Shown: positions 1 to 64,000 of the stretch, piece by piece
Position numbering within the stretch: the first letter of the stretch is position 1
How the letters are laid out: each line of letters opens with the position of its first letter
DNA from: Psammoneis japonica
Taxonomy: Eukaryota
Length of the DNA: 64,000 nt
NCBI GenBank assembly: GCA_008632985.1
Contig: QPGO01000140.1
Location: forward strand, 1-64,000
Reading direction: 5' to 3'
The notes under the pieces: model-generated
The model's input: the letters and a program-made list of their open reading frames with translations, nothing else
Told to the model about the DNA's origin: nothing
The model's database searches: none
Translations under genes and position numbers: made by a program

Positions 1-1299
1 TCTCTGCATGCCACACCCCAATGATGGCAACCCATCATGTCTGCAGCTGATTTTGTTTGAGACATGCCCTCACAGCAGAGGAGCACATTGTTGTCTCTTT
101 GGTGGCTGGCCTCCTGTGTGATGAACAGCTCAGCTTGGTTGGCTCAGCACAGCTCACTGCAGCACTTCTTTGCACGTCAATTGATTGTCCTTGCCTGGTG
201 CCTTCTCTGGCTCTTGTCTTTGTCACTGGCAAACAGAGAAGAACAAAGAGTGCTTGGCAACAGACTCCATGTCAGCTCTGCATGCCACGCCACAATGACG
301 AGGGCAACTCATCATGTTTGCCACCCAAAAAGGAAGAAACTTGTGTGCACACAGGGCCAGCCAATCTCTGGGTCAGTGATCAAGAATGACCTTGGCGCTG
401 CTGCAGCAGTCAGTGGTTCGCAGCTGCAGACCAGCTGGTGTGTTGCATCACCTCATCACATTTTTTCCAGCTCATTTCTTGACTGGCAGCAGAGCTGGAA
501 CAAAAAATGAGAACTTCGCCAGTGCACTTGGGTGTCTTTTGGCAGGTTTGCCCCAAAAAGAAAGAGCTTGCTTTGTGCAGCTGCGCACTTTTTGTCTGGC
601 CCACCTGACTGTCACTGACTGACACATGTGGTGTGTGGCTGGTGCTGGTGGCAGAAACATGTCAGAGTGGATTTTGGACCCCAAGTCGAGTCTCAACTTG
701 ATGTGACATGCAAGATGCACAATCGGCAAGGGGCAGTCAATTTCATTTTTTCCAACACACACCTGCTTGTCCCAGTGCAGCAACAACTGTGCTGAACAAT
801 TGAGTGATGCACAATGCTGTTTGATTGCAGCACCCTCCACAGCCAGAGGGCTCCAGGCAATGCTGCTGCACACTTTGTTTTTGGGTGCGCTCAGAATCAT
901 GAAAATTGAGCTGGGAGCACTTTTGGGTGCACTCAGAATCATGAAAATTGAACAAACAACTCAAGAGATCTTTGCATGAAATTAAAAAAAAATGACAACA
1001 AAAATGACTCCTGGGGCAGCACCAGCTTGGACTTGTTGTTGATGCCATCACTGACAACAACAGAAACAAGAAAGGTGTTGTTGTGTTTTTGACTTTTGGC
1101 GCTCAAAGATTGAAAGAAAAGCTCCACAAATCTTTGCACATTGGAACATCCACAAGAGCAGTGCTCCTGGCATGGCGCCAACTCGGGCTTGTTGTGCACG
1201 CTGTCACCAACCGGCATCATGCAACGCGTCTGTTGAGTTGGTTTGCTTGACATTGTGCCAGCTCTTGCTTGTTCGTTCGTTTGATGCTTGTGGCTGCTG
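1..1299. other. TpA-depleted hypermutated domain 1 (open at window start)
   Basis: Only one TA found by eye in about 1.3 kb (983-984, in ATTAAAA). CG is also rare and TG/CA is abundant. TA returns abruptly at 1300 (tgtatgtacgtcgtacgtag). Confidence 0.9.
878..951 (+). repeat. Two-copy direct repeat, 42-bp period
   Basis: ttttgggtgcgctcagaatcatgaaaattga and ttttgggtgcactcagaatcatgaaaattga; the copies differ by CG versus CA. Confidence 0.85.
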
Positions 1300-8269: not shown

Positions 8270-10640
8270 CAACATTGATCAACACAAGTTTTACAGAAGG
8301 ACCAGGTTTTCCTTTGGAAGACGCAATGTAAACAAAAAACAAGCACTGAACACAGGAGAGCAATGGCGCAGTCTGCATTCTGCATTGGCATTCGAGGACT
8401 CGTGATTAATGGAGAATGCCAACGAAGTTCATTTTCATGCCGTGCTCATGCTCAAGAACTGTCCGGAATGAGTTGCGATGGGGGCACTCCGATGAGTGGT
8501 GTGCCTTTGTGGTCTCTCATTGGTGCCATTGGGCAATCATTCTTTGGTGCGATCGCGATTGCGGTTGGATGCCTCGCGGTTGTTGGCGACATGGGTCATG
8601 GGAAAATGACATTCTTCCTTTGTTGTGCTGTTCAGCTTGCATGGATTCCCTGCATTGCAGGTGTGATGGGTGTTGGGCAACAGACCACCAATCCTGAGAC
8701 ACAAACCTTTGTCCCAGCCGATCTCTCACCAACGGAGAGTGACGTTCGATTTGTCAGGTCCACGGGTGTGTCAACTGTCCTTGCTCACAGATTTGCTTTC
8801 ATCGAGTCTCTGTCATTTGCCACTTTTGGTCTCCTTGCCTGCCAAAGTGGCAAGCCACAAGACAGGTCAGCAGGACATTGTCATGGATGCCTTGTTGTGT
8901 GTGCAGTGCTGTCGTTCTGCTTGCCGGTTTTGCCCAGCTCACCCTTGGATCTTTCATTCTCGGCAACTGTCAGAGTGGCCCTCTGGACAACCCTGTGTTG
9001 GTTGCCATCTACACCATTTTCTTCCCTGAGATCAGTGCATTTGTTGGGCTTGTCCAGCTGTTCACTGGAGGAATGCGCATTTTCAGGTGAACTTGCCATG
9101 ACTGTGAATTGTGCATCACTTTGCTCATTTTTGCACGAAGCACACAAAAATCTCCATTTGACTTTTTGAAACAAATCGTCATCTTTGTTGTTGCCATGGT
9201 TTTTGTCAGCTCTCTTCTGCTGAAGGTGAGTTGATCGTCTCGTTCTCGTTGCGAATTGGATCTGCTGGAGTCAAGTCATTGCATGTCGTCTGCACACAAT
9301 TGCCACACAGACCTGAAGGCTTGGGTCCTTGATGGTTTTCCTCTGTGTGTTTGATTGTGTGCATCTTTGGAAGTTGGTTTGAGGCAAAATGATGATTGCC
9401 TGTCAAAGCAGTCCGTGGCTCCGATGGAAATGCACCACGATTGTCAGCAAACTTGCTTCTTGCATGTGCACTGAATGTTTGTAAATGTCCAATGTGGCAG
9501 TGAACCACAGCCAACCAATGCACTTTTTAGTGCAACAGTTGTTGTTTGATCAGGAACAAGATTGGGGCCAGCCCCTGCTTCATTTTTTTAAATGCACGCT
9601 GAAGGCCCTTTGATGTCGTGGACCAAGATGGTGTGCTTGACAGCACCACAAAGGGCAGCCTTTTTTTTTAGGTTGCAAGGTGGTTCAGACCACTTGAGTT
9701 GCTCACTGAGCATCTCACAACTGATCCCTCACAGGTTTGACACTCCTGTGGGTTGCTGGCTCACAATGTCAGCTGCACTCTCCATGTTCCACAGTGTTTG
9801 AAGATCTGTTTGTGTTGTTCGTTCATTTTGATCTTCTCACTGAGTGATGCTTTGCAACTCACACTCTTTTTTAGATTTTGATTTCCATTTTTTAACAGAT
9901 GACATGAATGGAGAAGTGCTTTGTTTGGAAGCTGTGCTGACACTTGCGTCTGCATTTGCTCTGGACAGCGACATTGAGGTGTCATTGTTGTGGCTCTTTG
10001 GGGGGCTGTTGAAGTTGCTTGCAAGAAGCCCATGCATTGGGTCAGATTGACAAGAGTTTGCTCAAGCTCCTCCAAGCATCTGTCATTCAAGTCACTTGGG
10101 CACAAAACATGCCACCCAATGTGCATTTCCCCATCTCACTCACGTCCCAGCAGCCAACGACACTCCTGTGCAACAGGTGCATCTCTGCGCTCAGTCGCAT
10201 TGACGGGGCTTTTTTGTGCTTTTCCAGGCACTCTGTCTGACACACAGAAAAGTGCATCAGCCCACAACCTCCATCAAGTCTCAGCAACAATGATGCTCCT
10301 GCTCAACTGAAGTGTCCATGAGCCACTTTGGTTGCTGAGCTTGACCTGTTCCCCAAGGAACACAAAAATGGCTGGCAAATGCTCCCTCCCACAACTCGAC
10401 ATGACTTTCCAAGATCCGGCATCAGTCATGATTTGTGCAAAGCCCATGACCATGTGTGCCCAATTGTTGGCGCAGGCATGATTCCCAACATCGAGAGTTG
10501 CTTTCATCATCAAAGTGGGGCTTGCCTCATGTGTTTTCCTGTTTCCTTGTCTGAAGCGGGACAGTCTCATTTGCCAAGGCCAAAAACCGCCACGACGGAG
10601 TGACGCATTTGCTGCAACTCCCGTCACAATCGGGTGCTGC
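8270..10640. other. TpA-depleted hypermutated domain 2
   Basis: Very few TA, mostly in TTTA/TAAA/TTAA (e.g. 8292, 8329, 8407, 9482, 9528, 9589, 9669, 9872, 9893). Many overlapping Tyr-free, Cys/His-rich spurious ORFs. Confidence 0.9.
8465..9090 (+). pseudogene. Decayed paralog of the membrane protein at 41482-42633
   Basis: GVPLWSLIGAIGQSFFGA...NPETQ...FAFIESL...YTIFFPEIS aligns with the intact gene. Frameshift near 8900 (TG slippage), truncated at both ends, Tyr->Cys/His and Arg->Cys/His changes. Confidence 0.92.
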
Positions 10641-30695: not shown

Positions 30696-31269
30696 AAAAG
30701 AGGGGAGTGGTGACAATTTTGAATTTTTGCGTGTATTCTACATTTCACTCAATGCTACTTTCAAGCTATCGATTGACATCACGACATGGTTGCGATTTAT
30801 GGTGGGTGTTGCGGTTTCGTTTCATGCTTCTACTTTGCACTCTATTTTAGCTATAAAAGTGGATTTCTGCCGGTGAACACCAAACTGTGACAACTGTCTG
30901 TGCAGCTCTTCCTAACTACTTTATTTTAATACACCATTTTGTATTGTGGAGAAGATTGTAGCAAGTCGTTCGGATGCTTCACTTACCGAAGTACCCGAGC
31001 CACCGTACGCACACCCGACTCTCTAGTAGGGTCTAGACTACACGAACACTAGTTACAATCAAGGCTTTGGTGATAGAAAACTTATTACAGTAGATATTGC
31101 GGGGACTCCGTGTAAAGGTCGGCACACTCGGCACGGCCGATGGACGCCACCTTACAACAACTAAGGTTGTCGACGAGATCACCAAAACTCACACGATGCC
31201 ACACTGCAGGAAAGCTTGACAATGCTGCCAGCCTCCAAAAATGATATGATACGAATCTATAACGCTCAA

Positions 31270-31790
31270 TTTCACATTTCTGCCCGCATCCCAACCAATC
31301 CTCCCACGAGATCCATTCTTGCTTGAACTTTAAATCAGGACGGAACGGAAGACAGCTTGCTCGTTCATCACAGTCCTTCATTGCTTCCAAGTCATCCTTT
31401 TGCTTTACGAGTGTCATAGAGTCCTCTTGAGCATTCAAGGAGAGCGTTTGAGCCACTGCTTGAGCTTCTGAGAACGTCAAAGGTGTGCCGAGAAATCATC
31501 CCATCCACCTCTCCATTCCTTTTCCCACACCTCGCCCGCATTCTTGAGCAACTGGCCCTGCTGATGAGTTCCTGCGCATCAGTGAGAAATTTGCAAGAAA
31601 AAGGAACTTTTCACAGTGTGTGCAGATGATTGCCACAAGCAGTGCCCAACAATGGTGTGTTGCAATGCTGAGAAAGCCCTTGCATGCCTGGACAAGAGCA
31701 CTCTCAACTCTTCTCGTGACCCAAGCCTGCATCCACTGGCATTTTCCTTGCTTTCATGTGAAATGGAAACAAACTTCTTCATGTTGCTGC
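31270..31790 (-). pseudogene. Decayed gene with repeated W-x-x-W-x-D-(F/W)-L-G units
   Basis: Joining frames gives GLGSREE..CSCP / QLLKNAGEVWEKEWRGGWDDF(fs)LGTPLTFSEAQAVAQTL...LPFRPDLKFKQEWISWEDWLG, with frameshifts. Lies on the edge of domain 3. Confidence 0.6.
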
Positions 31791-32083
31791 TGCTTGACAT
31801 TTTCTTCTTCTCTGCAAGGCCATTGCTGCCACGCAGAGTTGTCTTGGGATTGCGCATGTGAAGGTTGTTGTTCCCAAAGGGCTGCTGCATGCCACAGACT
31901 TTCAATGAGGAGTCAGCATGGAGAAGCTGCGGGACAATTCAACAAACCCAAGTGACAGCTGCTTTGTCACAAGAAAGATCTGCCACAAAGGCAACACCAT
32001 GGGTGCAGGTCTCCCATGATGAAGAGTTTGATGAAACACTGCCACTCTCACTCTCTCTCTTTCTCTGTCTCTCTGTCTCTCTT

Positions 32084-32151
<68 letters not shown>

Positions 32152-35100
32152 AAAGGACCAGGCAACCCACAGTTCTTCTTGTGTTCCTTCCAAACAGTTT
32201 GCTGCAGACCCTTGGGATCTGCCAGGTCACCCAGGCAAGGAGACTTTTTGGCAGTGGGCTCCACAGTGATCATCTGCTGCAGTCTCTTGAGAGAGAGAGA
32301 GACTGGGAGAGCATTTTTTGGTGGGTCTTGGTCTCAAATTGTGCTCAGTGTGGTCAAGGACAAGAAGCCAATGGCTCCATGCAGAGGTGAGGGTGCTCAC
32401 CCCAAGCATCTTCTTTTTGTCCTCTTGCATTGTGTGCTCTGCAACCTGGGCCTGTTCCATGGGCTTGTTGTGGCTGAAATTGCAAGGCTCTGACCCTTGA
32501 CATGAGGCCAGCCACAGAGTCATGAGCTGTTGAAAGCTTTGACAAGGACATGGCACTGTGGTGGTGGAAGACTTTCCCACAGTCTTCCTCTTGCTGCTTG
32601 AGCTTCCAGACTGGGCCCACTTTGTCACCTCAAACTGACTTGCCTTGACTTGACTTGCCAGTTTGCTGCCTTTGCATTCAGCAGATTCTTGCTTGTCAGT
32701 TGCTTCAGGCTGACTTCCCCATGGAGATTTGAGAAGACAGCCAAAAAGTTTGGCGCCAGCAAATTCTTGTGGCCACAACCAAACACATCTTGGCCAATGT
32801 CATTGAGGACTTTAGCAAGAAAAGAAAGTCCTTCACCTGTTGGCTGTTGTGCACAGTGTGACACATTTCTTGCTGTGGTTGGCCCACACACCAGTGGCTG
32901 GCTCTGAGTGGCAACAGAGTTTTTTGCCCTCAGCAGTTGCAAGCAGACTGAAAATGCTCTTGACTTGAAACAAGAGAGAATTGGCTGGTGTGGTTGGCTG
33001 AACAAGCTTTGTTCCATCATCTTCTTGTGATGTCTTTGTCTGGTGGAGCTTTCCCTTTTTTGCCCACAGGTGCAAGCATGTTGGCTGGTGCCCAAGCACT
33101 CTCATTGTCTTTGCTTGCAGTGTGTTGCTGCCACATTGCCTTGCTTGAGGACAACCAAGCACCAAAACTTGTTCTCTTGGCATTTCTCAAAGGGCTGGGG
33201 AGCAAGATCTGAGAGGCCAAAAGGTGCAGCCAGAGCACCACTTGCAGCATGTGTGAAGCAACCTTGTCTCAAAGTTGTTTGTCCTGCTTTTTCCTCTGGG
33301 CAGCCATGTCAACTGGCATGTTCAAACCAGAGGTGCATTTTGAGTTTGGCAACAATCAATGTGATTCCTTGCTTGCATGGCTGCATGGGCTGCAACTCCC
33401 AGAGGCGCCAGCTGTCTCATTCGGCACTGTGAATTTCTTGCAGAGCTCTTTGAAGCATCGAAAGATCTCTGTGTTTGCCACAGCACTTGGGGAGAAGGCT
33501 GGGATCCTGTGCACAATGTCCCATGGAAGCATGGCAACCCACACCAGCACAGGTGGTTGCCAGCTTTGCACTTGCAGACCAGCCACCCATGCCCAGGATC
33601 ATCTTGCTGGGTGACAATGAGTGGTGTGAGAGAGAAGTGGTTGCTCAGAGATCCATTGGGTGCCATGCCTGCCAACCCCACTCAACCTGGGGGCGCAATC
33701 TTCTCCACATCTGAGGGTCATTTAGAGCCCTTGCAATGCTGTTTCAGGACAGGATGCTGATGATGCCCAGGGTCTTGAAGAGGTTCTCTGGGTTTTTCAG
33801 TGCCAGGCAAGCATCAAAAGAACCCACACCAGTCAAAACAGCACGGAACAACTCTGCTGGTTGAAATGGTGCATCTGTCGCTGCTGTGTGGCCATGAAGC
33901 AAGGTGGGGTCTCCTCCTGTGACATGGCAAATGCCCGGGAAAACACTGGGTCTTGTTCTTGTTTTGCTGGCTGGCACCTGCAACATGAACCCACAGGAGA
34001 GCAATGTGGAGTCAAGCACAGCAAATCAAGCTGAAGATTTGTGCTGTTTTGTTTGATGGCTGACTTGGGAAAGATTGTCTCCAGCAGTTTGCATGAAGCA
34101 GCATTGTCAGCAGGCAGCCACTGTTTTGAAGATCTGGCACAGTTCTTGAGCTGCAACACATGATGCAGATTCATTGTCACACTTGCCAAGAGAGCAACCC
34201 AGTTGATGATGTGTGGCACATGAGCCCAAGGATCTTGACACATTTGTCCACTTGTGTGCTTGTCCAAATTTTGCACAATGCTGGGTGCAAGTTGCTCTGA
34301 CTTGCAGGGCCAAAACAAACAGGTGCGCTGCTCCTTTCTCATGCTCCTTTAAGACAGACGTCATCTCAGGGAGCAGCAACTCAGTCTGGTGCACTGTCAA
34401 AATCCTTTGGCTGCAACTTGGCACCTGACCTTTGATCTTTTTGTTTTCCCACACAGTGTGATCATGGCACCCCCACTGCAACTTGTGCACCACATTTTGC
34501 AGCACTCTTGTGTTGTGCCTTTTCTTGCTGCACCAAGTTTTGGCATTTTGCTGCTTTGAAAATTGCAGGGCACCATGCTGCTGTGCATTTACAAGAAACA
34601 CATGAGCAAAAGTCATTGTGTTGGAAAAACATGATTTGAGCTTCAGGCCAGCCTGCCATTTCACCCAACAATTTTGACACACTGTGTGCCATCCAGAACA
34701 AGCAGGAGGGCAATCAAAGGCTCCACTGGTGCTGCACATGGAGCACCTTGCTTTTCTGAGTTTTGTGCCTCCTGCAACCAGTCAGACAGGGCACACAATG
34801 CAGGATGAAAGTGATGCCCAACGGCTGCTGTGTGGACCTTTCATGGTTGAAATCTTTCTTGGGAGGCAGCCAGGGGGTTCTTGCCAATGCCAAAAGTTCT
34901 TGATGGAAGGAAGGCATGGCCTGCACAACCACCACACCTGCAAGAGCAGCCACAACAGCATTGCCACTTGGTTTTTTAGAAAATGTGTTGTGACAACTTT
35001 GTTTTTTCTTCTTTGCTGTTCTTTGGTGGTGCATTCTTTGGTGGTGCAGGGAAATGGTGGTGCCCCCCAGGTGACAGGAACAACAAGGGCCACACAACAT

Positions 35101-37385
35101 TGGCAGAATGAGCAGAGCAAGAAAAGCTTTCAGCATTCTCAGATCTTGCGCAAAGAGTTGCACTGACAACAAAGCAAGAGCTGCCCTGCAACTCCCAGAG
35201 AAGAGAGCTTGTGACATGCTGTGGCATCTGGCTCTGCTTTCTGGCAAAGAGTCACAGCAGGAGATTTGCTGGAGGAAGATTGCAGGTGCAGCACATGCAA
35301 TTGTGTCTGGTGTGGCATTGGAAAAGATGGGTTGGCAAAGCAACAAAGTTTTTCAATGCAATGAATGTTGGAGCTGCTCGTGGTGGTGAGGACGAGAGTG
35401 CTTTGTTGTTGCCAGCAGAGAGTTCCACAGAAAGCAATGGTCACAGTCATGCTTGCTTCAAATTTTTGTCAGATGTTGCCACATTTGAAATGCCAGGGCC
35501 CAAGCTGGCAGACAGCAGCTTCATCCACAATGAGCATCATTTGGTCAGAAGTGTTCTCTGCCATGGCTGTGGCAAAAAACACTCCTTTTGGACAGAGACC
35601 ATTGCACACACTGATGTTGCCACTGCACCCCTGAGATGCTAAAAAAAAGAGTGCATCACAAGCCAAAAAAAAAAAAACAGGGCACAAAAATGCTGCTCAA
35701 CCTGAGCAGAAAATTTGCTTGTTCAAAGCCATTGCAAGCCACAAAGAAGGACAAACCTTCAGCTGCCTCCATTGCAACAGCACTTGCTCCTGCTGTGCTG
35801 TGTGCCAAGCTCCAAATTGGATGAGCTGTTGGCTTGAGAAACACTGCTGTTTGCTGCAATCTCTCATGCCCTGTGGTCAACAACAAAAAGGTGCTCTTTG
35901 TCCTGATCAAGGAACATCCTTTTGAGTGTCCCTGGGAGCATGTGCTGCACATCAGTGTTGCCAGCCCCCCCCTCATGCACACATCTCAGGCAGACCAAAC
36001 CCAACTTCACTTGCATTGTCACAGCTGCATTGAAAACTCCAGATGACATTTGTCTCTGCACTCATGATGCTCAAGCAAAGTTGCTTGGCCATGAGATGAA
36101 TCATGCCTGGGTGTCAAAATTGATGCAAAGTTTGTTGCGCACTGCTCTTGCAAGCAGCATCTGGCACACAGCAGCCAGTGTGAGCAATCAGCGATGGTGT
36201 GTCACCAAACTGCACTGGCTGTTGTTTTTTGCCAAGTGCAGCACTTCAAAACTGCTGCCATGAGTCCTGGGTGTTTGCAGGGTTGAGCACTTTGCCCAGC
36301 CACATGCCACATTGGGGCACTCTTGGATTGTCCTTTCACTCCCGCATCACACACAATTTGTGATCATGTGTGGTGACTGACACCATGCATGCACCCACAT
36401 TGTTGTTTCTGCATTTGAGGATGCAAGACTCTGGCAGGTGAAAACCATGTCACACACGGTTTGCTCCAAACAATGCCCTCCCAGCAGCTCAAAGACATTT
36501 GGCAGCACCAGCACATGACAGAGCTGCGGCACAAGTGCCAATGGCCCCTTGCCATTGCAACATGCATTGCAGCCACACAGCAAAGCAGCATGGCACCACA
36601 CAGATGCAACAGTTGTGCACTTCCATCAGGAGGCTGACCCCTGCTGCATTTTCCACCTGCTTTCTTTGGCGCATGTCTGGGAGAGGAGATGTTCACTGGA
36701 CAGTTTTTCCCACAATCACTGTTGCTCTTGTCAACCACAAACAGCATCGCCTGGCAGACTTTGATGTTTGGGTGAAGAGCTGGAGAATGAAAAGCACTTT
36801 GCAGCATCTTTGGTTGCGCGCGCCAGCATCTCGAAGAATGCTGCCAGGCAAGGCAAGATGATGCATCCCTTGCTGAGACACTCCATTTTAAAAATGATTT
36901 TAAAACAGCCAGATCATGCTCATGTGGCAGGCCCAATCTTCTTTCAGATGGTTTGACACAAGCTTGTCAACTGCTGCTTGGACATGTGGCCAAGGGTCTG
37001 CACAAGGTTTGAGAAGGGGCAGAGCTGCTCCAGCGCTGAGCACTTTTTGGTCATCCTGAAGTTGCAAAAGAAGAGCTCCAACAACAGGCAGCCAACAAAG
37101 AGCACACATTTGATGGTGGAGAAGAGATCGTCTTCCTGATCTCTTTGACAAAGATTGCAACAGAAGTTGTGCAAGGTTTTTTTTGGTGGTGATGCCAGGC
37201 GGTGGCTGCTCGGGCCCACCAAACAAATCGAGAGGGTTTGTCCGAAGTCGCACTCTCTGTTTTGTGATTGGTCAGAGTGATAGATCCTGAGAAGGAAGGG
37301 TTCTCGTTGTCAATCAAAAGGCCTTCGGACAAACTGGGTTGCGGGGGGGCCTTTTTCTCCAGAGGTCACCCCGCGCAAGGCAGTC
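31420..37385. other. TpA-depleted hypermutated domain 3 (strongest; CpG also largely lost)
   Basis: About nine TA found by eye in about 5.9 kb (32813, 33723, 34350, 34590, 34977, 35640, 36889, 36901, 37281). Dense six-frame spurious ORFs lacking Tyr. Confidence 0.92.
32045..32146. repeat. Interrupted (CT)n microsatellite
   Basis: ctctcactctctctctttctctgtctctctgtctct...ctctctc. Confidence 0.95.
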
Positions 37386-39625: not shown

Positions 39626-41164
39626 TCAGAAGCAAGCAGGGCGACCCCGACATTCTGCCTCTCTGTTCTTTTCGTTGTCCCGGAACTCTTCAAGCTTGGT
39701 CTCCCAAGAAGCTGTACGGTCAAAGAAAACCCCAAATGGCCGATAGTTGTGGTAAGGCACGGCGCCTCTCTTCCACCGACGTACAAATTTGTCATGAATA
39801 TTCCGCATTGACTTGAGCTCATTACCAGTGTAATTAAGAATGAGATTGTTCAATTCCAGTGGGTCCTTCCTTTTGCGATATAGTTCCTCAGATGGCTTCA
39901 AGCCATCTCCAGCCCAAGGCCAATGAATGTACTTGTTGAACTTTGTCACCACCCCGAGGCTGTGGACCTGCCCAGGACCCCACACATTTATCAGTGGTAG
40001 AGCTTTATGGGTGGTGTTTGATGGATTATCATATAGGGGCAACAAACTCTTCCCATCCATTCCTTTGGGATGTTTAACTCCAGCCAGGTCCATCAAGGTT
40101 GGAGCGAAATCGACGTTGCCCGTCAACGATTTGCACCTCAACTGCTTACCGCTGTTGTTGTGCCTGGGATCATACATTATCAGCGGTACTCGAGATGCTT
40201 CTTCATAGGGTAATACCTTCCCTCCAAATCCGTGCGAGCCTGAAAAGTAGCCATTATCCGAAGAAAAGATAATCACCGTATTGTTTGCCACTCCGTGCTT
40301 CTCGAGTGCGTCTCGTACCATACCTATCGCAACGTCCACCGCATAGACTTGCTGGTGGTACTTCGCCATGACGTTGTCATACCGAGTGTCATAACCCCAT
40401 TCGTCAAAAAACTGTAAATACTGCCTTCCCTGTCGAGCCTGCTCGGCAAAGTGCTCCCCTGCCTGGCGCCCAAAGTTGCCCGGCTTTGTGAATTTCTTTC
40501 CCTTATAGACTTCATCATCCAGTGGATCGGGATAGGGCGGTCGGTGGGGTGCCTTGAAGCTGATAGACAGACAAAAAGGCTTATTCACAGCCACAGCTTC
40601 CTCGACAAAATCGGCACCAAACGCCCCGTACGCACGCGTTGAGTGAGGGTATTTCTCAGCGTAGGCTTTCATTGATTCGTTCTCCTCCGTTAGATAACTT
40701 GTCTGCCCATCGCTTGCGCCCCACTTGTCAAAGTCATTTTCTGGAACATGGCCCCATTCGTCAGCTCTGTCTGCCACCTTGAACCCGATCTTTCCGGCCA
40801 TGGCGACAAAATAGCCCGCCCGACGCAGCAACACCGGATAGGACCGCTTCCAGTGCTTTCGCAGCAATGCCATGGTGCCATGCATGAAATTACAACCGGT
40901 ACGAAACTCAAACTTTCCTGTCATTATGTTTGCCCTACTGGCCATACAGATTGCCGTCGTGACGTAATGGTTATCAAAGACCATGCCGTCCCGTGCGAGA
41001 GCATCCATGTTGGGTGTTTGAACGTCATCATTTCCGTAGGCACCCACCGAAAATGTGGACTGGTCGTCGGTAAGGAAAAAGACAATGTTTGGGCGCTCGT
41101 CGGCATCAGCAATGACGATCAGGTGTGATAATACGAATAATACAGACGTGAGACGGAGCTTCAT
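39626..41164 (-). CDS. Secreted formylglycine-type (S1) sulfatase, intronless
   Basis: RPNIVFFLTDDQ, catalytic CxAxR (CMASRANIMTG), PH, SSDNG, GKVLPYEEASRVPLI and ELY..DPLELNNL. Confidence 0.92.
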   Translation of the reverse strand: MKLRLTSVLFVLSHLIVIADADERPNIVFFLTDDQSTFSVGAYGNDDVQTPNMDALARDGMVFDNHYVTTAICMASRANIMTGKFEFRTGCNFMHGTMALLRKHWKRSYPVLLRRAGYFVAMAGKIGFKVADRADEWGHVPENDFDKWGASDGQTSYLTEENESMKAYAEKYPHSTRAYGAFGADFVEEAVAVNKPFCLSISFKAPHRPPYPDPLDDEVYKGKKFTKPGNFGRQAGEHFAEQARQGRQYLQFFDEWGYDTRYDNVMAKYHQQVYAVDVAIGMVRDALEKHGVANNTVIIFSSDNGYFSGSHGFGGKVLPYEEASRVPLIMYDPRHNNSGKQLRCKSLTGNVDFAPTLMDLAGVKHPKGMDGKSLLPLYDNPSNTTHKALPLINVWGPGQVHSLGVVTKFNKYIHWPWAGDGLKPSEELYRKRKDPLELNNLILNYTGNELKSMRNIHDKFVRRWKRGAVPYHNYRPFGVFFDRTASWETKLEEFRDNEKNREAECRGRPACF

Positions 41165-41481
41165 CGCTTCGATGCACCGTGCATGGGCATATTTCCAATT
41201 TTGTGGAGTTTCTTATGAGAAACAAAATGCGCTTTTGATGACCCGTGGATGACCCGACGCATGACTTTTGGTCGTAGAGGCATATGAAAAGATAACTAAC
41301 AGCGTAGGGACCTGCCTAGAATAGGACCACAAGTTCAAGTTGATGACCGCACGTCGGAGGGAAATTCTGAATATATTTGTTATTCATTCATGAAGTTATC
41401 ATTTTCATCTCAACGGTCGCGCTGCTGACACCATTTTACCATTTTCCGCATTCGAGTTCAACCCAGGAGAAGAAGTCGACC

Positions 41482-42633
41482 ATGGCAACGACTGAAGGTG
41501 ACAAGGCACAGAATAACTATGTCGACCTTATTGGCAGCCAGCGTCTTATTGCTGACATGCGTCAATACGGCGGGTTAGTTCTTGCGCTAGGAATTTGCGC
41601 AATGTTTGGTGCGTTGGCTGGCGTGGCGAGTGGAGTGGGTCGCGATGGTGGCAATCCTACGAGCGGAGTTCCATTGTGGTCTCTGATTGGAGCTGTTTGT
41701 CAGTCGTTCTTTGGAGCTGTCGCAATTCTGGTTGGCTACTTAGCTGTAGTAGGAGATACTGGTCACAGGCGCTTGACATTTTTTCTCTGCGGGGCCATTC
41801 AACTTTCCTGGATTCCTTACGTCACCGGCATGACAGCGATTGGAAAACAAGCTGCGAATCCTGAGACCCAGAAATTCATTCCAGATTACCTGGATCCCAC
41901 CAATAGCGAAATACGGTTCGTTGGTGCAATGGGCATATTAACGGTCCTTGTCCATGGCTTCGCTTTTATTGGGTCCCTGGCTTTTGTATCGTTTGGCCTC
42001 CTTGCCTACCAGACTGACAGGCACCATGAAAGGTCAGCTGGATACTTTCGCAGTAGGCTCATCGCATACAGTTTAGCTGTCTTTGTGGCAGGCTGTACTC
42101 AGCTTTCTCTTGGAGCCTTTATTCTTGAAAAGTACGGCAGTGGCGCTCTTGATGAAGCGATCAATGTTGCTGTTTACACAATATTCTTCCCTGAAATCTC
42201 GGTTGCTGTGGGATTCATTCAGCTACTGACAGGAGGAATGGGCATAGTAAGGTACTTTGGGAGCGAATATAGCTCATCAGATTGGACTTATCAGGGATTG
42301 TGTTTCTTCATGTGGCTCATGATGATGATTCTCCAACTCATGGTGCAAGTTTCCTTCGCACCTGGCGGTCAATATGCAGCCGCGGCACCATCACGCGCTT
42401 GTGTATTCTTGGGGTTTTCACTTATGCCTGCCTATCTTGACTACAAAATGCGCAACACTCCGATCGTTTTCGAACCAAGTTATTATGGTAATTTTACTGA
42501 ACATGCCCCGATTGCGGACTCAGATAAAGCAGAAAGAGGATACGAGGCTCAGGCTGCAGAGGATATTGATAGAGAGACGGGAGAAGGTGAAGCTACGCGG
42601 GTGAAGCACGAAACCTTCGTGGATACAACATAA
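41482..42633 (+). CDS. Polytopic membrane protein of unknown function
   Basis: Intact ORF from ATG 41482 with about 7-8 hydrophobic segments; paralog of the pseudogene at 8465-9090. Confidence 0.85.
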   Translation: MATTEGDKAQNNYVDLIGSQRLIADMRQYGGLVLALGICAMFGALAGVASGVGRDGGNPTSGVPLWSLIGAVCQSFFGAVAILVGYLAVVGDTGHRRLTFFLCGAIQLSWIPYVTGMTAIGKQAANPETQKFIPDYLDPTNSEIRFVGAMGILTVLVHGFAFIGSLAFVSFGLLAYQTDRHHERSAGYFRSRLIAYSLAVFVAGCTQLSLGAFILEKYGSGALDEAINVAVYTIFFPEISVAVGFIQLLTGGMGIVRYFGSEYSSSDWTYQGLCFFMWLMMMILQLMVQVSFAPGGQYAAAAPSRACVFLGFSLMPAYLDYKMRNTPIVFEPSYYGNFTEHAPIADSDKAERGYEAQAAEDIDRETGEGEATRVKHETFVDTT

Positions 42634-53532: not shown

Positions 53533-53879
53533 TCTGAATTGCAATACAACCTGTGTTGTGGTTGTTTCCTTGTAACACTCTTGAGTTGCGATAGTCATCG
53601 TTCGTTGGCGGGAAAAGCATGGAATCACGGAACAGGTTATGAGGTCGGAGGGAGAAATGAACAAATACAGTAGTATCCATCCTTGAGGGTTTTCAAAAAA
53701 ATTTACGCAACCCACGCAACACATTGCATCGCTCACTCACACATTCGATGCCCATTGGCAAGTGCTTGTTCTCTTGATTCGTTTCTCCATTCTCCAGTTC
53801 CGGCTTTTATCACGCGTGTTTTGTTGCTGGCCACTGGGATCATGCTGGAGGCAGACATGTTTATGTCCCTGGCTGGAGG

Positions 53880-55270
53880 CAACACTGGCTGGCTGAACAA
53901 CAACTGCCCAAGACTGCCAGACAGAGTTGGAGTTTTTGGTCTCTTTGCCTTGGTCCAGAGAGGAAAATTCCAATGATCAACCCCACTCTCAAGGATGGCA
54001 ACAAGGTGACATTTGGGGGTGAGGAAGCCACTGTTGTGCATGTTGTTGGCGGGCATGCATGGGGTCACGTTTGTGCGCCACTTTTCTGGGCAGGCGTGAT
54101 GGCATTCGTGTTGGCAAGAGATTCCTTGCTTGTGTGCGATGGAGTGTCTCGGGCGCCTGTTTGAGGGCACTGCCACTCAGTTTTGGAAAAGTCTGTGGGG
54201 TCTGTGTGGCCTTCTGGGCAACACATCAGCACGCTGGCAGGAATTTTGATCTGGCTTTGTGAGTTGAAAAGGCTCTGAGGAGAGCTGCTGACAGTCCCAA
54301 GCTTGATGATGATGGGGAGAATGAGAAGAAGACCAATCAGTTTCTGCAGATTCAGGTGCAGGTGCACTTGCCAAGGTGTGCAAAGCAAAAGACAGGTTTT
54401 AAAAGCTCTGCTGCAGGGAGCTTTTTTGTGACACTCCTTTTTGCAACAAAGTGAGCAGCTGCACTTTGAGCAACATGTTGTGGCTCCCCCCTTGTTCTTG
54501 CCAAGGAAAAAGCAAAAACACTGTGCTGCCAGAGAGACTGCGGAGCTTGGCTGTCATCATGCCCCACTCCATGTTGAGTGTGCACTGGCAAAAGTGGCTG
54601 CACTTTGCTTGTTGCTGTGCAGAGTGCCCCATCGTCTGTGAACAAGTTTCCAAAAGTGCCAGCACCCTTGTGCCAAGGACACTGGCTCCCAAGATGTTGG
54701 TGAAAAAATGCACAAATTCAGATTTGGCAGCAGTGCAGCTGGTTGTTGCTCAGCTGGATCTGTTTGAGTTCACGCAATGCACTGGACTTGTCTGGGATGG
54801 TTCCAGCAAAGTTGTTTTCACATCCAGTGAAAGCATCTCCAAAAAGAGCAAATGAAAATTGTCATCAGGAATGGCTGAGTTTGTGCAGTTGTTCCAGGAC
54901 AATTCAAGGTGCTTGAGCTGCAACACGCTCAATGCCAGATGCAGCAAGAAGGACAAATGTGCAGGGAAACACAAGCAGGAAGAAATGAGCAAGATGAGCA
55001 TGCATCCTTGAGAGATGAAAGATCAAGGCACAGCAGGCTTGCCACATCATTCGCACGCCCAACAAACGGCATTCTTCAAGGTCTGGAAGAGGGCCAATGA
55101 ATGACACAGTGTTGCGGGACAACAAAGTCAAAGAAATCCCAGGAAGTGTGCATTCTTTGGTGGGAAAAGCCAGCCCCAGAATGTTGGTTCACGTGCTGCT
55201 TTTGTTGGGGGGGCTTGTCAAGAGGATCATGCCACAACATGAGAACTTTCAAGCCTTTGTCAAATGAAAG
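53880..55270 (-). pseudogene. Decayed leucine-rich-repeat (LxxLxLxxNxLxGxIP-type) gene fragments
   Basis: Across frames: LKVLMLWH, SFIGPLPDL, LKHLELSWNN..SAIPDD, LEMLSLD(fs)ENNFAGTIPDKSSALRELKQIQLSNNQL, TLSGSLGQLLF; several frameshifts. Confidence 0.55.
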
Positions 55271-55939
55271 TGGAGGCCTCTGCTGCTTCGTGCAGTGTCT
55301 GAGGACTCTCATGAATGCAAAAAGCTTGATTGCAAGCTTTGTCTGAGAACATCATTGTGTGATGGTCGCATTGGTGGTGCGCCATTGACAGCTGTCATGG
55401 TTGCTGGTGGCGGGACTTTTTCTCTTTTTTCTAGATTCAAAGAGAGATGGCATCAGAGCCATTTGCCTGATCCAAAATTCTGGAGTGACCAACTGAAAAC
55501 ATGGACACTGGAGAAGAAACCAGAAATCAATGGTGGCTTGTTTGTGCTTCCAGCAGGGTCCTTGCTGTTTCACCTCACACATGAGACAGAAAACAAAACA
55601 GGACAAAAGAAAATGAGTCAAGATGATGGAGAAAGAATTTCGAAATTCCGGAGCTTGTCGGCGGCAGCTTTTTTCCGTTTTGCATGGCTGCCGCAAGGCG
55701 TGCACAGGAATTGGCAACAACTTTGAAACTGCCAAGTTCCAACGAACTTTCTACATGCAGCGACGTGGTGTTAATTCTGCTGAGATGCACAAACAGTGAC
55801 AGTGATTGAGAAATTTTGCAACGGTCACAACACAGCAAAATCTCTGCAGCACCAGCTCCGCTGCACTCTGCTGCAGACAGAGAGAGACCACACACGAAAT
55901 CTTGCGCTCGATTCTTCCAGATTTTTGATCACAACTGGT

Positions 55940-56229
55940 CGTCTTGCACGATGTGTTGTTGTTTGCCAAGCCAGAAGCCGCAATCTCCAAGGATGGCTTG
56001 CCCTTCCTCTGGATTGAGAGCTCGCTCTTGTTTGGCATTCCACAACTCATTTTGCTTGATGGTGTGTTGTCTCTCTTTTTTGACTCATCGTCTTGCATGA
56101 TGTGCTTGTTGTTTGCCAAGCCTGAGAGTGCCGGAGTCGCCAAGGATGGATCGCCCCTTCTCTGGATGACAGAGACCTTGCTCTCACTTGGCATTCCACA
56201 ACTCATTTTGCTTGATGGCGTGTTGTCTC
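55940..56229 (+). repeat. Diverged two-copy tandem repeat, about 150-bp period
   Basis: cgtcttgca(c/t)gatgtg..ttgttgtttgccaagcc...caaggatgg...ttggcattccacaactcattttgcttgatgg(t/c)gtgttgtctc at 55940-56073 and 56089-56229. Confidence 0.85.
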
Positions 56230-56859
56230 AAATGGTGGAGCAGGTGTTGCCAGTTGAGTCCGGAGGTCGGGGCAAATCGAACGCATCTCTCCGGCCTTGA
56301 GTCCATGTCACTCTCGTGCCTTTGAGTGCAGGAAGTTGCCCGCTCACTTGGTCAGTCAAGACCATGGCTGTTGAAAGAGACAGCAAGTGTTCGTCTGCAA
56401 AGCAGCAAGAGCTCGCCGAGCAGATCACGCCGTTGATGGAACGCTGAATCGGGGTTTCGCCATGCCGGCAACACGGCAACACGGCAAGCCTTCACTCGCA
56501 GGGAGTGTTGATTTAGAATGTGGTCGACTTGCAAAATTTCTTGTTGTCTCCACATTGCGTCCCCCCTTTTTTCTTTTTTGCAGTGATGTTTCACTCTGAA
56601 GATGCGAAAAAGCTTGAGCGCCATCTTTTGATGGCACTCTTGAGGCAACATTGCCCTGCGCGACCGATTTGTCTTTGTTGGCATGTTTTTCATCCCGCAC
56701 ACACATCAATGACTGCGATGGCGGTTGCAGCATGTTCTCGGTCCTCGTGCTCCATTGTCACGTCAAACGCGAGGATTGTGCATGAGATTTTTGTCACGCA
56801 TCGCACTTTTGCATCTTGTTGGACAAGGTGTCACAAAAACACTTTGTTTCGACAGAGTC

Positions 56860-58574
56860 TGTCAGAAGAATTTGTCCAAGGAATGGACAGGTGCATTGTC
56901 CTCAATTGGACAGAGTGGTTGACCGTTCATGGCACAACAACAACACAACCTGGAAGTTGCTCGCATGCACCCAAAGACCCTGTTTGGACTCGTGTGGTTT
57001 GTCCACCGACCCAATGGACCGGTCAATTGCCTTGCCTCACAAATGCTTGAGCTCCGTTTGAGTGTCTTCCGACATGTCAGGAGAAAAGGTGCTGTCGTCT
57101 TCCCAAAGTTCCTTGATGCATCATCCAACGAGTCCCAGACACCCGCTGACAAACCCGTGGCGCAGGCGGCTCTGGCGGTGGCATTTTCGAGACCAATTGG
57201 GCGAAGGACACTGGGTCCCAAGATGTTGGCCAAGAATTGCACAAATTCAGATTTGGCGGACATGCTGCCATCCACACGAAGTTCTGAAACAGGAGCTCCC
57301 GAGTCAGCAGAGACAGGACCAATCTTTCACTCCAATCATGCGTCCTTCAGCTGGCATGCCATCATCCAAATGTGCCTGAATCGGACAACTGTGTGTGAAC
57401 ATGCCCACTTGCAGAGCTTGCATCATTGAACACACAGGAATGAGAACAGCAAAATCGAGTGTTTCGATTGCTTTGCGACCACAACAATGAGCCACGACAG
57501 CGCCCAGCATTGGATCTTTACATTGGGGATTGGATTTGCCCAACAAAGCCATGTCTGATGATGAATCATTCAGCAGGTCAAGCACATGTGAGAAAAGGTT
57601 CAACTTCTTTGCAGCTTCAGAGGTGAATGACGCCAAGGGTGAGCACAATGTGCGATTTGCCGTCACAATGATGTGGCTCCCATTGCAAAGCAGTTTGTTC
57701 GTTGGATTGCCTTTCATTTCTTCAGGCATCTCTGCTGTCATCAATTCATCAATGATCAAATCGAAGAGCAAAAAATCCAGAACCATGCACTCAAGGATGG
57801 AGGGGTTGTGCACTTCACGCAGAAAGGCTTGTCTGGCAAAATCAAAAAGCTGTGGCTCTTCAATGTTGGCTAAAAACTCACATGTCCCACTGCCGATGGC
57901 CACTCTGCGCCAATTCCCATGAGAGCCATAGACCGGATCATCAATCGTGCTGTTGACAAACTGAAACGGAGTCTTCCAGACGAAGGCGAGAACAACAAGA
58001 GCACGGCAGGCTCTGACTTTCGCGGCGTTTCACCACACCTGCAATTCAGCCAAATTGTCAATTGATTTCTCTCTTCTGCAGCTCGAAATGGCTCTCGCAG
58101 GCTGTGGCCATGGCATGGCACTGCAGTGTCGATTTTTGGTGAAGGGAGCACCTCGTGCCGTGTGACGCAGCCACGTTGAATGACGTTCACGTTGGAAAAC
58201 TGACCAGGAAGAGCGATGCCCACTGAATTCACGAAGCACCGGCAAACAAGAAGCCAGTCAGACGTTTCGCTTCCTCTCATGCCTGCGCCAACAGTGGCAG
58301 CATCCCCCCTTGGGACGCAGCTGGAAGGGCACTCTTCTCCTGACGATGCAAGGAGAGGTTCTTGCGTGGCTTCCTTGATGCAAATCTCTGCAGTGTTGCA
58401 ATGAACAGGCCAGGGAAACAGCAGAGGCACTGCTTGGTCCAACTGTAAGGTGTTGTTGGTGATTGTTTCAATCAACTCGGCATCATCGCATTTAGCGTTG
58501 TGGTGACTGCGTTTACAGTTTACAGTGATGTCGCCTTGACGTCTGGCGCGATCTATTATTTCCAAAAAGCTCAA
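56860..58574 (-). pseudogene. Decayed unidentified coding sequence
   Basis: ORFs 57870-58574, 57304-57903 and 56862-57275 read as protein-like (EEPQLFDFARQAFLREV...) but contain no Tyr and change frame. Confidence 0.35.
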
Positions 58575-62520: not shown

Positions 62521-63862
62521 TCAGTCACAATTTGAATCGATTTCCCGGGACCGCTTTTCGGCGCAGAATTTCACACACACAACACTCACTTTCACGACGA
62601 CGACACGCCATGGACTCACGGCCGCTTATAAATCGACTGACGCACCGCAATTCGAGAGGTAAGAGCAATGCGTATGACTAATTTTGATGTGAATGATTCG
62701 TTGGGAGCGTTGGTTTTTTGCTGTTGCGTTGCGTTGCGCTGTTTTGATGCCGTTTTCGACGAGTTTCGTGCTTGGTGCGTGTCGCTTGTTGCTTTTGTTC
62801 GTCGCGGCGTGCCTCGTTCTTTCTCGCTTTGACTACTCATGGTGGTGCAACGACACCCCATTGTTGTGCTTTTGTGTTGCGTTTTGGCTCACTGTTGTTG
62901 TTTTACGGCGCTTTGGGCGTCATCGTGGTTCAGCCCGGTTCGTCGGACGCATCATTGTCGTGACGACGACCAGCACTGCATTCGTGCATGGCTTTTTACC
63001 GTTGGCATTTCAACTGCATATTCCGTAGACATGACAACATATGTGAGTTAGCTGGGTGGGGCTAGTTGGTCACGCACGTTTGGGTTCGATGCAGCCGTGC
63101 AACTGGCCACACCCTGCAGGAAGAGCTGTTGGTGGCGCGCGAGCAGAAGCAACAAAGCAAAGAAAATGGCGTGGGTCAAAACGTTGTAAAATGACGCAAC
63201 AACAAGCAGCAAGAAGAAACCCAATTTGACCCATGAATGCAGCGCATGCATGTTGTCCAACCACTTCAATGGTGTCTTGCATTCCCAGCTTGTAGATGAG
63301 GGGACGGCGTTCGCGTTTCTCGCCATGGTGTTGTTGTGCGTTGTCGTGTTGTTTGCGCGCGAAGAACACGGGATCTATTTATCCGACAGTGACTCTGTTT
63401 TTCTAATGGCAAATGTTTTGCTGTGTCCAATCTGAAGACATTTTGAGAAGCGCTTCGGGGCGACCCTGTTCGGACCGTTAAAAAGAAATGTTTTTTGTTC
63501 ATCCTCTAAAACATGTTTCGGGGTGTTCCTCACTTTTTTTGAATTCGGGCATGTGTCTCTTCAAGATCATAGAAATTTCAATGATGTGCAAAACCCCAAG
63601 AGACCAACACAAATTTGTCTTCCATGCAGACCGTGTAGATTGTGCACCGGCGGAAAATCCACCGCCTGTCAACTCATCAGCAGCAATTCTACGCATGTTC
63701 TGCTTGCACCTCACACACGCACACACGCCTGCACAGTCTAACAACCGCGCACACGTGCGCGAGACAAATTCAAATTGCCTGAAATGAACATTGATGGGCA
63801 TGCACAGTGCAGCGCTGTTCGGTCATTGTCTCCAGTTGAAGGCTCCGTCATGCAAACATGTG

Positions 63863-63992
63863 ACTCGCCCCGTTGCTCGGTCACAAGGCTCNATTGCTCG
63901 GTCACAAGGCTTGTTGCTGATGTCACATTCGGGTCACAAGGCTTGTCACTCGGTCACAAGGCTCGTTGCTCGGTCACTCGCCCCGTCACTCA
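63863..63992 (+). repeat. Degenerate minisatellite of about 20 bp (gttgctcggtcacaaggctc) containing an N at 63892
   Basis: ggtcacaaggct occurs four times with variants; the N suggests a gap or ambiguous base. Confidence 0.8.
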
Positions 63993-64000
63993 ACAACCCC

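Follow-up and report, generated by a model that had tools for sequence, protein, structure and literature searches.

Survival of TA in five TA-poor domains

The DNA analyzed here is a 64-kb stretch of Psammoneis japonica (contig QPGO01000140.1, positions 1 to 64,000; the window), and the question it raises is why, in five stretches from which the dinucleotide TA is almost gone with A and T content unchanged in per-kb counts, the few TA that survive stand mostly within TTTA or TAAA. The five domains, D1 to D5, were drawn from per-kb counts together with TA gaps and comprise 14,235 bp in total (Table 1). We regard the surviving TA sites, eight in D3 and 16 in the other domains, as those slowest to react in an A:T-to-G:C hypermutation that is specific to TpA and has a context preference, a reading to which we assign a probability of about 0.7.

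The composition of the domains was distinctive at the level of dinucleotides. In D3 the observed/expected ratio (o/e) was 0.02 for TA (8 sites, with approximately 350 expected from composition), 0.12 for CG, 1.85 for CA and 1.78 for TG, compared with 0.60, 0.99, 1.18 and 1.17, respectively, outside the domains, where base composition was nearly equal to that of D3. Across D1-D4 the o/e for TA ranged from 0.01 to 0.05 and for CG from 0.12 to 0.51, CA and TG reached 1.6-1.9, and GC content was 0.48-0.52 within domains vs 0.45-0.49. The counts of CA (653) and TG (678) in D3 were similar, and therefore both strands were affected alike. Gaps between TA in D3 were 240-1396 bp long, the window median being 16. 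Of the dinucleotides ending in A, TA alone was depleted, with no depletion of AA, CA or GA in the domains, and the o/e for AA/TT was 1.23-1.30 in domains vs 1.13 outside. The AT dinucleotide was mildly depleted in the domains (o/e 0.71-0.90 vs 0.93 outside), and runs of at least 5 T or A numbered 70 in the 14.2 kb of the domains and 129 in the 49.8 kb outside, a density per kb about 1.9 times higher in the domains.

Each of the eight TA sites of D3 stands within TTTA or TAAA (binomial p = 2e-7 vs a background of 14.8%). The initial annotation had located these eight sites, and a GATAG at the domain edge (37281), at positions which all matched, and it had described the same pattern for D1, D2 and, mostly, D4. 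The single survivor in D1 and 6 of the 7 in D2 agreed with this description, but 'mostly' was generous for D4, where 4 of 8 survivors were of this type. Taking all domains together, 19 of 24 survivors were TTTA/TAAA compared with 300 of 2033 TA (14.8%) outside (Fisher p = 5.3e-12).

Every background that we considered gave a far lower share. TTTA/TAAA was expected at 12.4% from composition alone, at 14.5% (452/3112) if TA were re-created by one transition from CA/TG of the domains, and at 15.2% via any single substitution. It accounted for 16.2% (108/668) of outside TA beyond open reading frames (ORFs) of at least 120 aa and for 14.1% of those in long ORFs. In 29 related metagenome loci (257 kb), which surround homologues of the Integrator-subunit-1 gene of the window and were used as background only, the share was 14.6% (2001/13690); these loci contained no 500-bp window with a TA o/e below 0.15, and their largest TA gap was 280 bp. 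When domain boundaries were ignored and TA were selected for having no more than 3 others within 300 bp on each side, 17 of 22 were TTTA/TAAA, decreasing to 14 of 52 in zones of intermediate TA density (p = 0.017) and to 14-15% in dense zones. Survivor contexts thus departed from the background after adjustment for composition, and uniform GC-biased drift would not give the pattern, as the initial annotation had argued, since the composition, re-creation, non-ORF and related-locus backgrounds all fell at 12-16%. The survivor contexts are a fingerprint of context-dependent mutability and not of composition or uniform drift.

As an independent check we used contigs assembled from a public sequencing run (X1), which may be the source data of the assembly itself. 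Between 31000 and 38000 these contigs, which have no cover at 32170-32403 and cannot show rare variants, differed from the window at 27 bases; none of these fell at the eight TA sites and no TA was gained or lost. Homopolymer assembly error is unlikely to lie behind the survivors. Among the sequencing runs listed, none of RNA contained the sequence words, and two others from the sample of X1 contained almost none of them. Two dinucleotides, at 34779-34780 and at 36959-36960, are CA in the window and TG in the X1 contigs, with both bases changed together, which fits separate opposite-strand hits, in two haplotypes or two strains, on what was originally a single TA or CG. Across the left boundary of D3 (31234-31467) contig depth was approximately doubled (95 vs about 40-60) and three contigs diverged into unlike sequence at 31254, 31291 and 31323, which suggests that another, diverged copy exists or that haplotypes differ in structure here.

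Table 1. Domains, surviving TA sites and selected genes in the window
Feature	Position	Strand	Context or description	X1 contigs
D1	1-1299		cut by window start; one TA	
Surviving TA, D1	983		ATTAAAAA	
D2 ORF	8363-9169	+	hypermutated paralog of the 41377-42633 gene; Tyr to Cys or His	
D2	8409-10640		7 TA	
Surviving TA, D2	9528, 9589, 9669, 9872, 9893		after T runs of 5-9	
Surviving TA, D2	9482		GTAAA	
Surviving TA, D2	9010		CTAC	
D3	31419-37280 (5862 bp)		TA-erased, CG-poor, CA/TG-rich block, gene regions either side	
Surviving TA, D3	32813-32814		CTTTAG (TTTAR)	same
Surviving TA, D3	33723-33724		ATTTAG (TTTAR)	same
Surviving TA, D3	34350-34351		CTTTAAG (TTTAR)	same
Surviving TA, D3	34590-34591		ATTTAC (TTTAY); sole D3 survivor outside the sharper motif	same
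Surviving TA, D3	34977-34978		TTTTTAG (TTTAR)	same
Surviving TA, D3	35640-35641		GCTAAAAA (YTAAA)	same
Surviving TA, D3	36889-36890		TTTTAAAAA	same
Surviving TA, D3	36901-36902		TTTTAAAAC	same
Sulfatase gene	39626-41164	-	Pfam Sulfatase and SGSH_C	
Unmutated paralog	41377-42633	+	TA content normal; no family assigned	
D4	53864-58445		8 TA, 4/8 TTTA/TAAA; right half (55600-58400) TA lost, CG kept	
Non-motif surviving TA, D4	55432, 55752, 55772, 57929		in or adjoining the CG-retaining part	
D5	63741-64000		cut by window end; 0 TA in 260 bp	

Dependence of survival on run length and flanking base

Expected numbers of survivors were obtained by scaling outside counts to the length of the domains, and sites were classed by the length of the T or A run next to the TA, the longer one being used where there were two (Table 2). 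Estimated survival rose from about 1% at runs of 1-2 to 10-12% at runs of 3-4, 55% at runs of 5 and about 100% at runs of at least 6, the values for long runs being overestimated (above 100% at runs of at least 6) because T/A runs of at least 5 are denser within domains. For T runs followed by A, the share inside relative to outside was 0.02, 0.03, 0.14, 0.25, 0.33 and 0.99 for runs of 1, 2, 3, 4, 5 and at least 6. Runs of at least 3 differed from runs of 2 (p = 1e-7) and runs of at least 5 from runs of 3-4 (p = 1e-5).

Survival also depended on which base lay beyond the TA, opposite the run. After strand symmetrization, TTTA was followed by G in 9, A in 11, C in 3 and T in 0 of 23 survivors, compared with 46, 52, 105 and 103 of 306 sites outside, so that TTTAT, which made up 103/306 outside, was absent among survivors (0/23). 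TTTA followed by a purine (TTTAR, YTAAA on the other strand) survived far more often than TTTA followed by a pyrimidine (TTTAY; p = 5e-6, for classes found post hoc). The ordering of the motif classes in Table 2 is accordingly offered as a hypothesis and not as a test. TTTA/TAAA as the initial annotation framed it was therefore only partly the rule, as TTTAR/YTAAA were spared but TTTAY hardly so, and a run of two bases gave no protection. A single added T (VTTAR to TTTAR) raised survival from about 3% to 61%. With G at +1 in both cases, CTAG left 1 survivor of 28 expected (about 4%) and TTTAG 9 of 13 (about 68%), and the 5' run therefore matters too; a strand-independent hazard model based on the 3' flank only was dropped since these two survival values differ greatly.

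Table 2. Surviving TA by abutting run and by motif class
Class	Survivors	Expected	Survival
Abutting run 1	4	348	
Abutting run 2	1	148	
Abutting run 3	7	57.5	
Abutting run 4	2	20	
Abutting run 5	3	5.4	
Abutting run at least 6	7	2.9	
TTTAR/YTAAA	16	26.3	61%
TTTAY/RTAAA	3	59.5	5%
Other YTAR	2	67.5	3%
Other YTAY/RTAR	3	254	1.2%
RTAY	0	174	0%

Sparing did not extend beyond the abutting TA. The 70 runs of at least 5 in the domains had 10 abutting TA and only 3 other TA within 15 bp, whereas the 129 such runs outside had 29 abutting TA and 171 others within the same distance. Sparing is thus strictly local, being limited to the TA that touches the run. The proposal that TA in A/T tracts is disfavored by the mutagenic activity was in this way refined, the sparing being graded by run length and local, with TTTA/TAAA not the whole rule.

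Proposed mechanism

In the reading that we favor, a local hypermutation would act on both strands of silent DNA and turn TpA into TpG or CpA. RTAY sites would be lost first and YTAR sites more slowly, and a TA abutting at least 3 T on the 5' side or at least 3 A on the 3' side with a purine opposite (TTTAR = YTAAA) would be largely immune, its immunity growing with run length. The residue left after near-saturation would then be a read-out of the sequence preference of the agent. Because TA is self-complementary, each site offers one target per strand, and a change of TA to TG would represent a hit on the top-strand A and a change to CA a hit on the bottom-strand A; each could equally well have begun at the T paired with that A.

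We tentatively suppose that the agent is a DNA-acting enzyme, for which an adenine deaminase that, like the TadA/ADAT family, requires a T 5' of its target would be the most likely candidate. The target A on each strand may be hit more readily if a pyrimidine follows (T-A-Y), and A-tract geometry or extra flank contacts may block access at TTTAR. Products at YTAY sites, strand-symmetrized and taken relative to the outside baseline, were YTGY +69 vs YCAY +29 in the CG-retaining parts and YTGY +443 vs YCAY +123 in all domains, which suggests that an A followed by a pyrimidine was hit two to four times more readily. Such a preference fits the loss of RTAY, which is T-A-Y on both strands, first and of YTAR, T-A-R on both, last. 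The agent may respond to the bases on either side of its target, as a single-strand enzyme with flank preferences would, or it may recognize the shape of the duplex and be blocked by A-tracts, whose rigidity and narrow minor groove the initial annotation had put forward as the reason; the data are compatible with both. A more complete scheme, in which a chromatin-directed diatom mutator reads TpA in the duplex and is blocked by A-tracts such that TTTAR/YTAAA are immune and RTAY most exposed, is speculative and we consider it rather unlikely.

Several points weigh against the hypermutation reading and its details. One window was examined, and its 24 surviving TA are the whole sample; in D4 half of the survivors (4/8) were not TTTA/TAAA. 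Taken by itself, the difference between RTAY and mixed sites was not significant (p = 0.09), and the p-values for motif and purine/pyrimidine classes are optimistic because both the TTTAR/YTAAA refinement and the R/Y order were found post hoc. The expected counts presuppose that the domains once had a composition like that of the DNA outside, which is mostly coding, and the evidence for the direction from TpA to TpG/CpA is indirect in that no ancestral sequence exists. We have to admit that the product asymmetry given above depends on an assumed baseline, that decay of CpG confounds it by giving TG and CA as well, and that in the CG-retaining subset it amounts by our estimate to about 1.5 standard errors. 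The D2 ORF and its unmutated paralog (Table 1), taken as a before-and-after pair, offer only three TTTA sites with a mixed outcome and at 64% identity are too diverged; moreover, two changed TTTAT sites of the paralog read TTCAT in D2, which is opposite to the product inferred for TTTAY.

TA loss in relation to CG loss

In the right half of D4 there were 0-2 TA and 5-14 CG per 200 bp, the latter as outside, whereas D3 had lost both. At 8400-8600 in D2, TA was likewise erased with CG at normal density. TA loss and CG loss are thus two uncoupled processes. The proportion of CG remaining was 31-43% after each 5' base (summed by hand), with no TCG bias, and 7 of the 27 differences between the window and the X1 contigs were CpG/TpG or CpG/CpA. 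CG loss, which is indifferent to the flanking base and still in progress, is probably a slower, separate decay of methylated CpG, the methylation itself being predicted from the dinucleotide pattern, and we read the erasure of TA as faster and separate from it. On this reading D3 would be old and the right half of D4 young, and the two losses may allow the domains to be placed in order of age. The non-motif survivors of D4 lay in or adjoining its CG-retaining part, and the CG-poor D3, presumed to be older, retained run-flanked TA only.

Alternative explanations

The alternative that survives best concerns the agent and not the pattern. Error-prone repair synthesis by an enzyme of the DNA polymerase eta (Pol eta) type, perhaps initiated from deaminated methyl-CpG, or enzymatic modification of the T of TpA (such as oxidation to 5-hydroxymethyluracil) which is then read as C, could take the place of an adenine deaminase, as T-to-C and A-to-G routes to CA are indistinguishable because TA is its own complement. 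The loss of both CpG and TpA in the same domains is in keeping with this. Pol eta has an A-to-G preference at WA motifs (TA and AA). An agent acting at WA should also hit AA, and a Pol-eta-type process is disfavored because AA/TT is not depleted in the domains. The full erasure of TA in the part of D4 where CG was kept indicates that CpG deamination was not the trigger, and CG loss had no TCG bias. Nothing in the data speaks against a T-modifying enzyme, which would give the same sequence outcome. Overall we consider an agent other than an adenine deaminase improbable, though it deserves more weight than the explanations which follow.

Selection for TA as part of a functional signal, such as a T-rich 3' splice site with TTTAG at its end or an A/T-rich element for regulation or polyadenylation, would be suggested by the 7 of 24 survivors that read TTTAG, resembling a polypyrimidine tract and AG, and by the presence of a gene copy in D2. 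Selection on splicing would not block a change from TTTAG to TTCAG, however, because a YAG acceptor is kept. Of the 158 stop-to-stop ORFs in the domains, the 133 scanned with Pfam (the shortest being omitted) contained no family above the curated cut-off, and the longest ORF in D3 was 224 aa from stop to stop, with TGA as the sole stop type left in D3 DNA. A gradient extending up to T9, together with TTTTAAAA sites, is also unlike one signal, and we consider this explanation very unlikely.

It is no more credible that the survivors are TA re-created after erasure by C-to-T or G-to-A changes at the abundant CA/TG, in which case their context would reflect the origin of the mutations. The domains do contain 3112 CA/TG sites one transition from TA and substitutions are ongoing in D3, with 27 X1 differences in 7 kb, but just 452 of these sites (14.5%) would give TTTA/TAAA, compared with 19 of 24 seen (p = 2e-12), and none of the 27 differences created or removed a TA. 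If erasure were ongoing, new TA would last in slow contexts only, which leads again to the context-dependent hypermutation that we favor. Finally, regional protection, whereby poly(dA:dT) excludes nucleosomes or binds proteins and the mutator is limited to packaged DNA, would account for survival growing with run length, as longer poly(dA:dT) runs exclude nucleosomes more strongly, but it is similarly unlikely: 3 non-abutting TA were found within 15 bp of the 70 domain runs vs about 93 expected from the outside ratio, runs of just 3 protect already, the base beyond the TA matters, and an effect limited to the abutting dinucleotide argues against protection of nucleosome-free or protein-covered DNA.

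Genes in the window and origin of the domains

The window is eukaryotic and gene-dense, with Integrator-subunit-1, sulfatase, laminin-G, PKD and JmjC domains. Of 105 homologues of the Integrator-like protein, the two that carried an organism name were from Cylindrotheca fusiformis and Attheya sp., both diatoms. The product of the sulfatase gene (Table 1) was 58-70% identical to the best 120 matches listed, and those among the listed matches that carried organism names were all bacterial (Roseibacillus, Verrucomicrobiales, Akkermansiaceae, Puniceicoccaceae and Planctomycetota); this gene may be of bacterial origin.

The D2 ORF matched the unmutated paralog by BLASTP with 57% identity over 153 aa (E = 6e-61), and at four aligned positions a Tyr in the product of the paralog was Cys or His in the D2 ORF. 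DNA identity of the two copies was 64% (8440-9100 vs 41607-42270). Where the normal paralog had 26 aligned TA, the D2 copy had TG at 8, CA at 5, TA at 1 and other dinucleotides at 12. Judged by these alignments, D2 is a duplicate of a host gene. An Atlas search with the normal paralog returned no match of at least 0.9.

A repeat search of D3 found no long terminal repeats, terminal inverted repeats or other terminal repeats, no second copy of D3 was found within the window, and a viral_contigs scan with the longest D3 ORF returned no relative. D3 includes a (CT)n microsatellite, approximately 100 bp long, at 32045-32147, where the X1 contigs break. D4 contains a dispersed internal duplication (54513-54739 vs 56834-57268, approximately 79-88% identity) and a tandem repeat at 55939-56229 (156 bp, 1.9 copies, 83%), and both copies are TA-free already. 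A zone of reduced TA at 62990-63740 leads into D5 (o/e 0.25 for 63001-64000) with mixed survivor contexts and may represent a partly mutated border.

Significance

So far a single preprint of 2026 documents TpA-erasing hypermutation, in an alga that is not related (Bigelowiella natans). To the TpA hypermutation known from that work the window adds a proposed flanking-context rule, a run together with a purine. The context rule would be a falsifiable signature against which candidate enzymes can be compared, it could separate TpA erasure from drift or selection in other genomes, the context classes that survive could date the domains, and it may hint at whether single strands or the shape of the duplex are recognized by the agent. 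Under such a rule an erased domain would never become entirely TA-free, and this imperfect erasure matters where TA density is used to map such domains.

Comparison with known systems

In B. natans, the main text of the preprint reports a TpA-restricted A:T-to-G:C hypermutation measured in mutation-accumulation lines, in which the hypermutated DNA is integrated giant-virus and virophage DNA and an ADAT2-like A-deaminase is proposed (Mettrop et al., 10.64898/2026.01.13.699255). The two cases have in common changes that are almost exclusively A:T-to-G:C transitions, at TpA only, which yield TpG or CpA in local regions, and genome windows low in TpA that are high in CpA+TpG (10.64898/2026.01.13.699255). 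They differ in degree, as the window is near saturation (TA o/e 0.02) whereas the region of nucleocytoplasmic large DNA virus (NCLDV) origin in B. natans has a Rho of 0.45 (10.64898/2026.01.13.699255). The words 'context', 'flanking' and 'trinucleotide' do not occur in the main text of the preprint, whose supplements may hold a context analysis (10.64898/2026.01.13.699255). The host here is a diatom-like stramenopile and there a chlorarachniophyte, D3 and D4 are without a recognized viral or transposon signature and D2 is a host-gene duplicate, and CpG is lost in the same domains here, unlike in B. natans. No literature on TpA hypermutation or its context rule in diatoms turned up beyond this preprint.

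Repeat-induced point mutation (RIP) in Neurospora and other Pezizomycotina converts CpA to TpA and renders DNA AT-rich and TA-rich. The domains share with RIP local, dinucleotide-specific transitions in silent or duplicated DNA, sharp borders and a context hierarchy. As regards duplication, the window contains a paralog of the D2 ORF, 64% identical in DNA, and D4 carries duplications within itself. In contrast to RIP, TpA is destroyed here, CpA/TpG is raised and GC is barely changed. RIP as the agent, with C-to-T changes at CpA, was ruled out by the near absence of TpA, the raised CpA/TpG and the GC content of 0.48-0.52.

The TadA/ADAT enzymes resemble the putative agent in their A-to-I chemistry and in the U or T 5' of the target A; native TadA is described as dependent on UACG and TadA-8e as preferring UA (PMC12296453), which fits the strict T at -1 and the inferred pyrimidine at +1. 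In E. coli the sole natural ADAT2 shown to edit DNA favors GAA when its target is A and TCG when it is C (PMC10354150), a preference for GAA and not TA which counts against a deaminase of this kind, and for this reason no enzyme is known to have the TA run-purine signature. Immunity beside T/A runs goes unmentioned in the accessible parts of the two papers (PMC12296453, PMC10354150). TadA and ADAT2-ADAT3 also differ from the agent postulated here in being tRNA/RNA or single-strand enzymes. In the comparison of spectra proposed by the initial annotation, the TadA/ADAT feature, a T before the target A, is present and the WA signature of Pol eta is absent, AA/TT being undepleted.

APOBEC3 and ADAR hypermutate retroelements and viruses, and in the known cases their target is either C of single-stranded DNA or A of double-stranded RNA while replication is under way. 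They have in common with the present case that foreign nucleic acid is mutated by host deaminases and that a flanking-base signature marks the enzyme; the difference is that resident chromosomal DNA is changed here, with both strands alike, as the CA and TG counts of D3 indicate. Should the duplex-reading diatom mutator prove correct, the extended motif would identify its enzyme much as TC or CC identifies the APOBEC3 enzymes, and could help in tracing the protein responsible and in recognizing the same system in other lineages of eukaryotes, including B. natans.

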